Of a stretch of DNA of 64,000 bases, positions 42,700 to 56,022 are shown one piece after another; the stretch's first letter is position 1; every line of letters starts with the position of its first letter. The translations under genes were made by a program, and so were the position numbers. The DNA comes from a virus. Under the pieces are notes generated by a model that did not search any database, was not told where the DNA came from, and saw nothing but the letters and a program-made list of their open reading frames with translations. The stretch lies in IMG/VR virus record IMGVR_UViG_3300020183_000010; one strand, 5' to 3'.

Positions 42700-42729
42700 C
42701 TATAATACTTATATGTACTATATATCCTC
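42693..42729 (-). promoter_or_regulatory. GATATATA motif inside an imperfect hairpin covering the fibre gene AUG
   Basis: Minus strand GAGGATATATAGTAC-atataa-GTATTATAGATGTCTC. Confidence 0.6.
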
Positions 42730-43212
42730 GACCTCTGATCTTAATATAGACATTATAATGGAATCTACATATCCATCTTTTTTTAGTATTTCCTCTCTCT
42801 TTATACCTTCTATTTTAAATCCCAATTTTTTGTAAAGATTCAATGCAATCTGATTTGTAGAAAGAACCTCTAAGCTTATCTTATTTAAAAATCTTTCCCT
42901 AAATAAAATACCCATGAATTCTTTGTAAGCATTAGAAGCTAAACCATTTCCCTTAAATTCTGGATGTATATCTGCTCCTATATACAGATTTTTATTTTCT
43001 TCTGAATAGTTAGATATTCTAAAATATCCTATTTTTTGGTCGTTGTAAAATATTATATGATAGTCAGGAGAGTATTTTTTGAACCACTCGATAGTTTGTG
43101 AAATGCTGAATTGTCTGGAGTCGTGTAAAAATTCTTGTGCGTATTGATTTCTTATAGAATTTAAAAATTCCAGATCCTCTAATTGTATTTTTTTAAATCT
43201 ATACATTACCAC
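42718..43212 (-). CDS. GNAT N-acetyltransferase (PseH/RimJ-like)
   Basis: IHPEFKGNGLA, LEVLSTNQIALNLYKKLGFKIEG. Confidence 0.85.
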   Translation of the reverse strand: MVMYRFKKIQLEDLEFLNSIRNQYAQEFLHDSRQFSISQTIEWFKKYSPDYHIIFYNDQKIGYFRISNYSEENKNLYIGADIHPEFKGNGLASNAYKEFMGILFRERFLNKISLEVLSTNQIALNLYKKLGFKIEGIKREEILKKDGYVDSIIMSILRSEVEDI

Positions 43213-44357
43213 CCCTTCTTAATACAATCTACGATGTATTCTCTATCTTCCTGGTTTACCCACCACCCAACAGGAATAGAAACAACATTAGGTATAGTTC
43301 TGTCTAATGTTGGTAATGGCGATACGTGGTCTTTTACACAAGTGTGCTTATCATTTCTTTCGTGGACCTGGCTTACTGATATTCCCTTTTCTTTCATATA
43401 TTTCATGAAAGAATCTCTTTTCTCTACTAATATACTATAAATCCAGAAAGATGACTCGAATCCATCCTCTCTTACTAAAGGGGTTAAACCTTGTATATCA
43501 TTTAGATTGGAATCGTAGTAATTCCCATTTTCTTTGTGTGCACCTATTATTTTTTCTACATCTTTTAAATTTTCTATACCTACGGTAGCAGAGACGTCGT
43601 TCATATGAAATTTAAATCCCCATTCTTCCACGTCTGCTTCGCACCTGAAATCTTTTCGGTCGCCCTCTCTGTCTATTCCATACCACCTTAAGAGTTTACC
43701 CCTATTAAATAGATCCTTATTAGGTACCATTAAAACCCCTCCGTCAACCGATGTAATGTGTTTTATTGCTTGTAAGCTAAAAGTGCATATATTTCCATGA
43801 TTTCCTAATAATTCCCCCTTGTACTTTGTTCCAAACGAGTGTGCACAATCTTCTATTACTGCAGGACTAAATCCATACAGATCTTTACATTTAGCTTGTA
43901 TCTTTTTTATTCTATCTAGATCATTAGGATATCCTCCCCAATGGACAAGCATTATAACTTTAGTTCTGTGAGATATTTTTCTTTCAAGATCATCTAGATC
44001 CATGTTGAGTGTTCTACTATCTATATCAACCCATTTTATCTTCATCCCATTAGCTAAAATAGGCCAATTAGATGCTGTACACGTTAAAGAAGTGCAAAGA
44101 GCTTCGTCGCCATCCTGTATACCTGGCCAGCTATCTTTTTTCTTTTTTAACATATGAATAGCTAGATGCTCTGCTGATGTTGCAGAATTAAGCGTCATTA
44201 AATAATCCTGATTAAAATAATCTCTAAGATTACTTTCAAACTCTTCTACTTTAGGTCCTTGTCCTATGTAACCGCTGTTAAGAACCTTAGCAACCTCAGG
44301 TGCTGCATTAGGTGACATGTAAACTTTAAATAACGGTATATTCTTTACGTTTTTCAT
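43206..44357 (-). CDS. DegT/DnrJ/EryC1/StrS sugar aminotransferase
   Basis: GPKVEEFE, NSATSA, VHWGG, IEDCAHSFG, FSLQAIKHITSVDGG (PLP lysine). Confidence 0.92.
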   Translation of the reverse strand: MKNVKNIPLFKVYMSPNAAPEVAKVLNSGYIGQGPKVEEFESNLRDYFNQDYLMTLNSATSAEHLAIHMLKKKKDSWPGIQDGDEALCTSLTCTASNWPILANGMKIKWVDIDSRTLNMDLDDLERKISHRTKVIMLVHWGGYPNDLDRIKKIQAKCKDLYGFSPAVIEDCAHSFGTKYKGELLGNHGNICTFSLQAIKHITSVDGGVLMVPNKDLFNRGKLLRWYGIDREGDRKDFRCEADVEEWGFKFHMNDVSATVGIENLKDVEKIIGAHKENGNYYDSNLNDIQGLTPLVREDGFESSFWIYSILVEKRDSFMKYMKEKGISVSQVHERNDKHTCVKDHVSPLPTLDRTIPNVVSIPVGWWVNQEDREYIVDCIKKGW

Positions 44358-53333: not shown

Positions 53334-53349
53334 CTATTTTTTTTAATTT

Positions 53350-56022
53350 TTAAATAAATATGTTATTAGTTGGGAAATTCCAAGTTATATAAGCATAAGT
53401 TCCATTTCCTCCTAAGCTCGTTAGATTTAAACCATAAATAGTAAATGATGAATTATCTTGTCTAACGTAATTACCAGCTCCAGCTCCTGTTATTGTTCTT
53501 GAGACGTATTTAGCTGTAGATTGTGCATGTGTTTGTAAATCGAGAGCTGGTACGCCCAAGGGATGTGTTACCGTTATTTGGTTAGAGCTGTCTCTGGTAA
53601 ATAGCCATCCACCAACTCCGGATGTTATAGTGTTACCTGAAGCGTCATTTGCTGCTGGGAATGGTGTAACCGAATCAACATTTCCTGAACCATCAAATTT
53701 AACTTTTAATACATATTTAGCTATTGGCCCAGCAGCTCCAGTAGGTCCAGTAGCTCCGGTAGCTCCAGTAGCTCCTCCTCCTGTTGGTCCTGTTGGTCCT
53801 GTTGATCCAGTTGGTCCAGTAGCACCTGTTGGTCCTGCTGGTCCTGAAGGCCCAGTATTTCCTGTAGCCCCTGTAGATCCTGGTAAATAAGTTGGAGTTA
53901 CCCATTGGTATAATCCAGGAGATGTACCATCATTAACATAACTATAAAGTACACCTGTATCGCTATTGTACCACATGGCTCCTTCTGTAATAGAAGGTGT
54001 TCCTGTTCCTGTTGGTGAAAAGTTCTGGAAGAAAAATTCTACAGCAGGACCTGTTGGACCAGTAGCTCCTGTAGAACCTGCACCAGTAGCTCCAGTAACA
54101 CCCGAAGTACCTTCCAATGTAAACATACTGAATCCTGTATCACTATTGGTAATATCTACGTTTCCTGATCCTCCAGATTGATAAGATACTTTTACCCAAA
54201 ATCTATCTCCAGATACTGCATTAACTATACCTGTTACTGTTATAAGATCGTAAGGAACAGTAGATCCTGTAGTATCTTCCAAAGAAGTAAATCCTCTGAA
54301 ATTTAAAACCTCTGAGGGTGATCCTGTTCCTTTCCATAATGATGTAGAAAGAAAACTGTTTCCTGAAGATGCAGTATGCTCCAGACCTACTTTATAGCTT
54401 ATAAAATATTGTCCATCATCCAATACCTCTATATAAGTACCAGTTACACCAGAACTAGAAAAGTCACCAGTAGCAAATACACCGGTATCTATTAAATTAT
54501 CAGTGTCGAATCTTACTGGGGATAATCCACCAGAGCTTAAAGTTTGTGTTGTGCTAAATTTACTTAAGTCAATATAACCAAGAGGAGATGGAGCACCAGC
54601 AGGACCAGTTTCCCCAGTAGAACCTGTAGGTCCAATTCCACCAGTAGGTCCGATATTACCAGTAGGTCCAGTAGCTCCTGTAGATCCAGTAGCTCCTGTT
54701 TCCCCAGTAGCTCCTGTTTCGCCTTTTATGTTATATTGTAATACCCATATTCCTCCTGATTTTTGATAGACGTCCCCGGTAATTCCGTCTAAATATAAAT
54801 CTCCTTCAGATCCTAATCCTACTAAAGGAGCTCCTGATCCTACGTGCCAATTTGCTCCTGTAGGTCCAGTAGAACCAGTAGAACCAGTAGAACCAGTCGG
54901 TCCGGTTGCACCAGTAGCACCATTAGTACCAGCAGATCCAGCCGCTCCAGTAGCACCAGTCGGTCCGGTGGCACCAGTTACACCTTGAGCTCCTGGTGTT
55001 CCTTTAGCTCCATTAGGACCGGTAGGTCCAGTAGTACCTGTTACCCCAGTAGGCCCTGGAACAGTTGAATCAGCTCCAGTAGCACCAGTAGGTCCAATAT
55101 CACCAGTAGGTCCAGTATTTCCTGTTGGCCCCGTTTCACCAGTGGAACCGGTTGGTCCTGTTTCACCAGTAGATCCAGTAGCACCTCCTGCAGGTCCTGC
55201 AGGTCCAGTAGCACCTGTAACCCCTTGAGATCCTATTATAGAAGTCCAAGCACCTGTACCGTTTAATCCTCCTGATAGTGCTCCGATAGATGAACTTACC
55301 GGAATAGTACCGTTTATTGTTATAACGTCTCCGTTTGCTGTAGCACCTAGTCCAGGTAATGCTTTTATTGTTACCGTATTTAGTGAATATTCAGCTAAAC
55401 AAGGGCCCGAAGGATTTAGAGATATATTGTCTACTATAGATTGTGCGGTTAAAGTATTATTGGTGTTCCAGGATGCTTGGCCTGCGGTTGTACCGTTATA
55501 TAATACTGCTATGGTTTGCCCGTTAATTCCAGTTGATCCTATATCGAATGAGAATGAAGCTTGTACTTCTCCAAAGCTAACAAATGCTTCATAATCACCT
55601 CCAATAAATCTTATCTGTCCTGGTATACCAGGTTTTAAAGACTCATCTGTATAGGTTCTATCTAATATTAATCTTAATCTTCCTCCTGTATTTGCGGATC
55701 CTACTAAAACATTACCACCTGCAAAAATATCATTAGAAGTTATTAATCCGCTTGCTGTTATTTCTCCGTTGCTACCTTTTAATTGGATAGAAGTGTTTCC
55801 CGATACAGGTAATCTTAATAGATCCGCTGTTATTGTACCGGTATTAATTTTGCCGCTAGGGAAGTTTAATGTTTTATCCTGTATAGAAACACCAAAAGCT
55901 CTATTTATAAGAAGTATAGCTTCTTGTAACTGAGCAAAATTAGCATTAGTAATAGAGTTATTAGCCCCTATCGTATTAGAAGCCAACAGCTGTTTTATTG
56001 TGATCTGATTAAGTTCCTTCAT
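53350..56022 (-). CDS. Gly-X-Thr collagen-like fibre protein with globular modules
   Basis: [12 protein letters not shown] triplet tracts; EGDLYLD..TGDVYQK repeat module; C1q/BclA-like segment (FDT...[10 protein letters not shown]...SGDRFWV). Confidence 0.8.

Follow-up and report, generated by a model that had tools for sequence, protein, structure and literature searches.

A candidate fibre-glycosylation module in a lake jumbo phage, with a TibC-type transferase beside Ser/Thr-rich collagen-like genes

The DNA analysed here (the window) is a 64,000-nt phage stretch from record IMGVR_UViG_3300020183_000010, read as one strand 5' to 3', and all coordinates are positions in the whole window unless a locus is named. 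On its minus strand, two genes for Ser/Thr-rich collagen-like proteins are followed by a gene for P0001, a 1557-residue protein containing a complete transferase module of the TibC/Aah type (BAHT). We read positions 56022 to 42718 as a fibre-plus-glycosylation module of a lake jumbo phage in which P0001 glycosylates the adjoining fibres, and put the probability of this reading at about 60%. The branch of the BAHT family to which P0001 belongs is coupled, both statistically and phylogenetically, to genes for Gly-Ser/Thr repeats, and its catalytic residues are conserved. To our knowledge, the enzymes of this family have so far been described from a handful of pathogens only, as modifiers of autotransporter adhesins with a link to virulence. 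The present results suggest that much of its diversity lies outside these, with many members in environmental phages and bacteria and beside another class of acceptor. A first-pass annotation had proposed that the phage primes O-glycans on its own virion fibres with this enzyme, an interpretation that the analysis supports in part. The fibre genes and the domains of P0001 are:

53350 to 56022, minus strand: collagen-like fibre 1, 890 residues (Pfam Collagen 8.9e-26, 90 bits), its repeats interrupted by non-collagen domains
49062 to 53333, minus strand: collagen-like fibre 2, 1423 residues (Pfam Collagen 4.7e-63, 209 bits)
47830 to 48999, minus strand: P0001 domain 1, residues 1–390, predicted GT4-type glycosyltransferase with a GT-B fold (PF00534 7.7e-9, PF13692 1e-7, phrog_2170 glycosyltransferase 2.9e-33)
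46801 to 47829, minus strand: P0001 domain 2, residues 391–733, predicted GT-A fold with a C-terminal β-sandwich (AlphaFold2 predicted local distance difference test, pLDDT, 87.9), without a Pfam family
45706 to 46800, minus strand: P0001 domain 3, residues 734–1098, complete TibC/Aah-type BAHT module (scores below)
45130 to 45705, minus strand: P0001 domain 4, residues 1099–1290, predicted S-adenosylmethionine-dependent methyltransferase, similar to Methyltransf_24 and rhamnosyl O-methyltransferases (PF13578 7e-16, PF04989 5.5e-6)
44329 to 45129, minus strand: P0001 domain 5, residues 1291–1557, second predicted GT-A-fold glycosyltransferase (AlphaFold2 pLDDT 83)

The TibC-type module and the domains fused to it

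P0001 is encoded by an open reading frame (ORF) at 44326–48999. Its residues 734–1098 match positions 10–373 of the 374 in the family model TIGR04414 (hepto_Aah_TibC) at 3e-96 and 322.6 bits, against a cut-off of 200, and match the TibC chains 4rap/4rb4 at 1.6e-62 over TibC residues 26–383. The first-pass annotation had placed a complete BAHT domain at ~45700–46800 and had named a hidden Markov model (HMM) search against the autotransporter O-heptosyltransferase family as a check; the match is full-length and above the curated cut-off. The motifs it had listed, including the four cysteines of the iron finger, are all present: SLGDSIAW (D825), HSTAQAKYWNN (T942, K946), GSGLSW (W1018) and CNSC...WCP...FEC (C1054, C1057, C1071, C1083). 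The parts of the module, β-barrel, catalytic domain, thumb and Cys4 iron finger, can all be recognized, the finger being a putative iron site.

In TibC, Asp110 is the catalytic base, Thr226 and Lys230 are ligands of the β-phosphate, and Trp305 is a ligand of the heptose O4 (PMC4358343). D825, T942, K946 and W1018 of P0001 align with these four residues, which are invariant in 69/69 members of the collagen-associated branch described below, while the iron-finger cysteines are found in 68/69. The cysteines of P0001 and F1081 correspond to TibC Cys339/342/358/370 and Phe368 and are conserved. The position linked to stereoselectivity is Pro300 in TibC, Ser in Aah and Gly in P0001. TibC forms a dodecameric ring through a β-hairpin thumb and back-to-back dimers, and its β-barrel and iron finger serve oligomerisation and protein-substrate binding (PMC4358343); F265/V266 at the tip of its thumb align with Y/M in P0001.

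The domain also has weak matches to GT9/lipopolysaccharide heptosyltransferase models (PF01075 at 3.1e-9, TIGR02193 at 5.2e-6), and the phage holds a large cluster of genes for a 3-deoxy-D-manno-octulosonic acid (KDO)/fucose glycan. Both would fit an enzyme of GT9 type that, together with the sugar genes, builds or alters a non-protein glycan such as host lipopolysaccharide, capsule or free polysaccharide. We regard this as distinctly improbable: the match to the protein-modifying family TIGR04414 is ~300 bits stronger than those to WaaC-type models, the β-barrel and iron finger specific to TibC are fully kept, and the coupling to repeat-protein genes in bacteria would be hard to explain. Automated annotation names the domain 'autotransporter heptosyltransferase'. 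We file it instead as a new branch, because both the Arg286 contact of TibC, discussed below, and the autotransporter acceptor fail; no autotransporter gene was found in the gene run, where the neighbours of the BAHT gene are collagen-like.

P0001 appears to be more than a primer: the polypeptide is predicted to comprise four glycosyltransferase domains and a methyltransferase. Domains 2 and 5 were modelled with AlphaFold2 from small alignments. For domain 2 the top Foldseek matches were COLGALT1, LH3 and glycogenin (E about 1e-5, template modelling (TM) score up to 0.49). A collagen galactosyltransferase was considered on the basis of the first-ranked COLGALT1 and LH3 and rejected; since their scores are no better than those of other GT-A enzymes, we read the domain as a GT-A fold only. 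An ESM Atlas look-up of domain 2 returned only unnamed viral clusters. Domain 5 has an E-D-D (DxD) motif, E123-D124-D125, invariant in the domain alignment, and its Foldseek matches were SpsA, ABO transferases and chlorovirus hyaluronan synthase (TM about 0.5). The Pfam methyltransferase match covers residues 1145–1258. In PHROGs, only the GT4 and methyltransferase parts of P0001 have matches, and the BAHT segment has no family.

Among the 120 best relatives listed, the commonest form is ~1300 residues long, with GT4, GT-A, BAHT and methyltransferase domains, and the extra C-terminal GT-A domain is rare; only eight homologues of domain 5 with ≤855 residues were found. The GT4 domain, the GT-A domain (domain 2) and the BAHT module are kept together in relatives, either fused or as neighbouring genes. 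The family is large, with 758 clusters at 50% identity (E ≤1e-30) and 1724 fused forms of 856–2725 residues (E ≤0.001). Tandem BAHT fusions also exist, as single proteins (e.g. P0017, P0176 and P0188) hold two to four BAHT stretches.

Repeat proteins encoded beside the enzyme

Both fibres exceed the Pfam Collagen (PF01391) cut-off of 27.2 bits, and a census of their triplets agrees with the first-pass description of a G-T-S/G-S-S fibre directly upstream of the enzyme, preceded by a G-X-T fibre. Fibre 2 has 189 G-X-Y triplets, with Thr (116) or Ser (57) at X, Ser at Y in 163, and no proline; its arrays contain 336 Ser/Thr and only 17 charged residues. Three globular domains lie between the arrays, followed by a C-terminal domain, and the DNA shows tandem periodicities of 9, 18, 27 and 45 nt. 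In fibre 1, Y is Thr in 52 of 72 triplets, and X is Pro, Ala or Ser. Collagen triple helices are normally stabilized with the aid of Pro/Hyp or charge pairs, and fibre 2 could alternatively form a flexible mucin-like array instead of a triple helix. Its C-terminal domain is 41–51% identical to counterparts that adjoin BAHT genes at three other loci (L002, L003 and L033), and an ESM Atlas look-up of this terminus returned unnamed viral clusters only.

PHROG 'tail fiber' matches of the two proteins are confined to the collagen repeats. A portal-anchored set of loci (L184–L261) comprised only close relatives, with portal proteins 75–97% identical, and served to assess synteny and not as a control for structural regions. 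Both fibre genes are kept ~5 kb downstream of the portal gene in these relatives, and a homologue of the fibre 1 N-terminus is at this place in every one of sufficient length. Per fibre gene, 36 to 242 G-X-Y triplets were counted in the set, with the fibres ~16–21 kb into each locus; several contigs end inside the arrays, indicating that assemblies break there. Such length polymorphism is typical of exposed fibres, and we infer a location on the virion.

For a survey of gene neighbourhoods, 299 BAHT-domain relatives were collected from viral contigs; 80 loci, with flanks of up to 10 kb, were retained and dereplicated to 45 clusters. An ORF was scored as collagen-like with at least 10 triplets, and as Ser/Thr class with at least 40% Ser/Thr among the array residues. 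Control loci were anchored on Gmd in comparable phages. A collagen-like ORF was present within 10 kb at 28/45 phage BAHT loci vs. 1/43 controls (Fisher p = 4e-10), and one of the Ser/Thr class at 24/45 vs. 0/43 (p = 2e-9), a positive outcome of the co-occurrence test that the first-pass annotation had proposed. The collagen-like gene may be upstream or downstream of the BAHT gene depending on the lineage, sometimes on the opposite strand, with a gap that is often 51–120 bp. As these small gaps persist across sides and strands, they point to selection on proximity beyond inherited gene order. Five of five long BAHT contigs have collagen genes, within 10 kb in three.

The same pairing is seen in bacteria, where a scan limited to one genome per species gave 42 BAHT loci. 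Enzymes 44–51% identical to the phage domain, from Methylobacter and other Methylococcales, Polaromonas, Burkholderiaceae and Binatia, are stand-alone proteins of 375–450 residues encoded 4–160 bp from a small ORF with a signal-peptide or lipoprotein leader followed by (G-T-S / G-S-S / G-T-A)n. One example is Methylobacter luteus IMV-B-3098 (L140:8923-11125), where a gene for a secreted G-T-A/G-T-S protein that also holds two Cys-containing repeat domains (8923–9786) is followed after 40 nt by the gene for a stand-alone TibC-like enzyme (9827–11125). The two are flanked by mfd and by glycolate oxidase genes, in a housekeeping context free of phage genes. Polaromonas and Burkholderiaceae have comparable cassettes, in which the leader is of the lipoprotein type. 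At loci with lower identity (33–38%; Selenomonadaceae, Pelosinus, Acidisphaera), the repeat ORF is absent, and tandem BAHT paralogues precede genes for large proteins whose C-termini are of the autotransporter type.

A maximum-likelihood tree of 84 BAHT domains separates a collagen-associated from an autotransporter-associated branch with a Shimodaira–Hasegawa-like approximate likelihood ratio test (SH-aLRT) support of 98. A Ser/Thr collagen-like neighbour was found for 42/69 members of the first branch, several of whose 27 negatives are loci cut by contig ends, and for 0/15 of the second. Among the bacterial enzymes, the small G-T-S gene adjoins 17/23 in the collagen branch vs. 0/14 in the autotransporter branch (p = 6e-6), and autotransporter-like neighbours are confined to the distant branch.

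Candidate acceptors and donor sugars

The minus-strand run extends from 56022 to 38941 in the order fibre 1, fibre 2, P0001, a DegT aminotransferase, a GNAT acetyltransferase and a 1252-residue repeat protein (P0004), with spacings from a 32-nt overlap to a 62-nt gap. No minus-strand terminators were predicted between the genes of the run, where promoter and terminator scans did no better than on shuffled sequence. The aminotransferase and acetyltransferase genes fall within the range 42718–56022 singled out by the first-pass annotation, which had not mentioned them. The genes after P0001, and a distant cluster in the window, are:

43206 to 44357, minus strand: DegT/DnrJ/EryC1 sugar aminotransferase (PF01041 4.3e-69), its gene overlapping the end of P0001 by 32 nt; best match PseC-like (TIGR03588, 204 bits, below the cut-off of 423)
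42718 to 43212, minus strand: GNAT N-acetyltransferase (PF00583 1.2e-13); best match PseH-like (TIGR03585, 55 bits, below the cut-off of 93)
38941 to 42699, minus strand: P0004, Asn-rich protein of 1252 residues with N-x-I-G repeats at a spacing of 9/18 residues, β-solenoid-like; last gene of the run
3113 to 14879, minus strand: sugar-nucleotide/glycan cluster with KdsA (309 bits), a KdsD-type SIS protein (192 residues, without CBS domains), Gmd, Fcl (433 bits), a GT10-like protein, polysaccharide pyruvyl transferase and several methyltransferases

The fibres are probably the sugar acceptors of P0001, judging from the gene neighbourhoods, and we propose fibre 2 as the main one. Several observations weigh against this reading. 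Two large contigs have 19–40 kb between the BAHT gene and the closest collagen genes. Ten stand-alone phage BAHTs form a subclade that lacks collagen-like genes within 10 kb; upstream of these enzymes are a GT4/GT-A protein and a protein of 2000–2300 residues with 21–23% Ser/Thr. In the cultured cyanophage Mel-JY01 of Microcystis (PP395634; L001:3065-8430), a GT4-GT-A-BAHT fusion at 4750–8430, annotated only as 'methyltransferase FkbM', is preceded by a gene for a Ser-rich 508-residue 'structural protein' without G-X-Y periodicity. The phage enrichment could come in part from a location in the late or structural module, the Gmd controls being non-structural, and this is countered by the bacterial cassettes, which show the same pairing. 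Finally, Arg286 of TibC hydrogen-bonds the adenine N1 and is the basis of ADP specificity, and the R286A mutation abolished or largely diminished activity (PMC4358343). The equivalent position is A999 in P0001, with an arginine, R998, one residue earlier; it is V, I, T, A or L in 67/69 members of the collagen-associated branch and Arg in 14/14 of the autotransporter branch.

The Ser-rich, non-collagen neighbour in Mel-JY01 suggests that the acceptor class is perhaps broader than collagen-like arrays; it may comprise 'Ser/Thr-rich fibre repeats', most often of the collagen-like kind. If the collagen-like genes were neighbours only, the enzyme could glycosylate another protein: P0004, a component of the capsid or tail, or Ser-rich fibre proteins generally. 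P0004 ends the same gene run as P0001, and is formally closest in shape to the known acceptors of TibC, which are β-helical repeats (PMC4358343), while Mel-JY01 and phages of the L042 type have Ser/Thr-rich non-collagen proteins upstream of their glycosyltransferase/BAHT genes. We nevertheless consider a different acceptor unlikely. P0004 homologues were found near BAHT at 0 of the 80 viral loci, the minimal bacterial cassette consists of a G-T-S protein and a BAHT only, and the association with collagen genes persists where gene orders differ widely. The place of P0004 in the fibre/glycosylation system is uncertain; its N-terminal region has a short G-P-T-G-P-A-G stretch, and it is without a Pfam or PHROG family match. 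In the relatives examined, no counterparts of the run's aminotransferase, acetyltransferase or P0004 were found near BAHT.

The loss of the adenine-binding arginine in the whole branch also raises the question of whether the BAHT-like domain is catalytically silent or uses no sugar, and acts in fibre assembly as a scaffold that forms rings or as a chaperone. This appears very improbable, as 69 diverged sequences share the catalytic Asp, the two phosphate ligands and the sugar-binding Trp without exception, the domain is fused to other transferases, and genes for heptose activation adjoin the enzyme in six phage lineages (L042 (11080–12211), L051, L066, L068, L073 and L078). In these, a split HldE-like pair directly follows a stand-alone BAHT gene; it encodes a heptose-1-phosphate adenylyltransferase-like protein of 129 residues and a heptose-7-phosphate kinase-like protein of 250 residues, with best NCBIfam matches to rfaE_dom_II (100.7 bits) and rfaE_dom_I (116.9 bits), both below the cut-offs. 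A further locus (L010) has the kinase gene only. NCBIfam searches gave no matches for the 'cytidylyltransferase-like' protein of Mel-JY01 and its neighbours.

Phages with the HldE-like genes seem to bring their own heptose activation, and the position of the pair beside BAHT in six lineages points to activated heptose as the donor. The window itself has no ADP-heptose genes, as the first-pass annotation had stated: neither tblastn nor HMMs built from the phage HldE-like genes gave a match, its only SIS-domain protein is of the KdsD type and its only epimerase-like protein is Fcl. The most likely primer sugar of P0001 is heptose from the host pool, though this assignment is not secure; nor is the label 'heptosyltransferase', because the adenine-contacting Arg of TibC is replaced. 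Fucose-type and N-acetyl-amino-deoxy sugars are plausibly supplied and attached by the other sugar enzymes of the window; the KDO/fucose cluster, ~30 kb from the fibre module, may supply donors for it.

On the reading that P0001 glycosylates the fibres, we infer the following order of steps. The two Ser/Thr-rich collagen-like proteins would be made from the same strand as P0001, and its TibC-like domain would add the first sugar to Ser/Thr hydroxyls of the G-T-S and G-S-S repeats in the cytoplasm, perhaps also priming the G-X-T repeats of fibre 1. The GT4 and the two GT-A domains would then extend the chain and the methyltransferase domain would cap it, while the adjoining aminotransferase and acetyltransferase would make an N-acetylated amino-deoxy sugar as one of the donors. 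By analogy with collagens elsewhere that carry glycosylated Thr, the likely role is to make a proline-free triple helix more stable or stiffer and to place a glycan coat on the particle. More tentatively, P0001 may represent an undescribed large branch of TibC-like enzymes specialised for proline-free Gly-Ser/Thr collagen-like arrays in phages and free-living bacteria. The O-glycan primed here might be based on heptose or another sugar and be extended and methylated by the fused transferases, giving a 'glyco-collagen' in which sugars, instead of hydroxyproline, hold the triple helix together; the chain might be fed processively through the enzyme ring.

Related systems and context of the window

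The pairs TibC–TibA and Aah–AIDA-I of E. coli (PMC4358343) are homologous to the phage system over the whole BAHT module, with its GT-B catalytic domain, and the key residues are kept. In both cases the enzyme is encoded beside a highly repetitive Ser/Thr-rich protein, its presumed target of hyper-glycosylation, but the neighbour is a G-X-Y collagen-like array in the phage and a β-helical autotransporter passenger in E. coli. P0001 further differs in being phage-encoded, in the replacement of Arg286, in its separate and well-supported branch of the family, and in that its BAHT module shares a 1557-residue polypeptide with a methyltransferase and three more transferase domains.

The BclA exosporium nap of Bacillus anthracis is a trimeric collagen-like filament with a densely O-glycosylated repeat region, whose glycan ends in a methylated, N-acylated 4-amino-4,6-dideoxy sugar from a dedicated operon (PMC10050317). 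The phage run likewise has G-X-T repeats (in fibre 1), an aminotransferase, an acyltransferase and a methyltransferase, and repeat number varies between close relatives in both. The repeats of BclA are GPT and proline-rich, and those of fibre 1 resemble them, whereas fibre 2 is without proline. The priming enzyme of BclA is unrelated, with no BAHT, and acts on a spore surface and not on a phage.

Among viruses, the giant-virus fibrils, with Mimivirus L230, are similar in that the virus encodes its own collagen-like proteins, sugar-nucleotide pathways and transferases, and the outcome there is a glycan-coated fibre layer (PMC9614988). L230, which has a GT-A and a dioxygenase domain, hydroxylates Lys and adds Glc to the hydroxylysine (PMC9614988). 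In the phage, the acceptors would instead be Ser/Thr, the primer a GT-B BAHT, and the host bacterial. Capsid glycosylation has been inferred from two phage glycosyltransferase genes (PMC11256854). Glycosyltransferase genes also lie next to structural genes in mycobacteriophages, whose systems are not known to involve a BAHT or a collagen-like acceptor. Freeman et al. are said to have found, in Cell Host Microbe in 2023, that mycobacteriophage glycosyltransferases adjoining structural genes O-glycosylate the phages' own virion proteins; the enzymes are reportedly of GT2/GT4 type and act on capsid and tail-tube extensions of actinophages.

A literature search for links of BAHT/TibC or heptosyltransferases with phages or collagen-like proteins returned nothing relevant. 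If correct, our reading would add to the mycobacteriophage systems a second route by which phages glycosylate their own particles, and would give bacterial viruses a counterpart to the fibril glycosylation of giant viruses. Glyco-engineering could make use of an O-glycosylation line whose enzymes are already fused in nature and whose acceptor would be a simple repeat, and the cultured Mel-JY01 offers an experimental handle on the system.

The phage origin of the window is evident from genes for a portal protein, DNA ligase, clamp loader and exonuclease that adjoin the gene run. Its GC content is 30–42%. In a search of sequencing runs, the sequence was present in many lake-water metagenomes; many lake-water DNA runs matched and no RNA runs were listed. 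Further genes on the minus strand encode a UvdE-like UV endonuclease (35384–36136; PF03851 3.6e-10) and a small protein with a terminal UvrB/UvrC motif (37829–38371), which look like phage-encoded repair of UV damage, suiting a phage of surface water. Separately, two contigs with a GC fraction of 0.33, L143 (254 kb) and L159 (64 kb), lie in metagenome-assembled genome bins of Bacteroidota and carry fused BAHT ORFs of 924–960 residues together with collagen-like genes. They look like phage sequences that were sorted into these bins, which hints weakly at the host group of phages with such a GC content.

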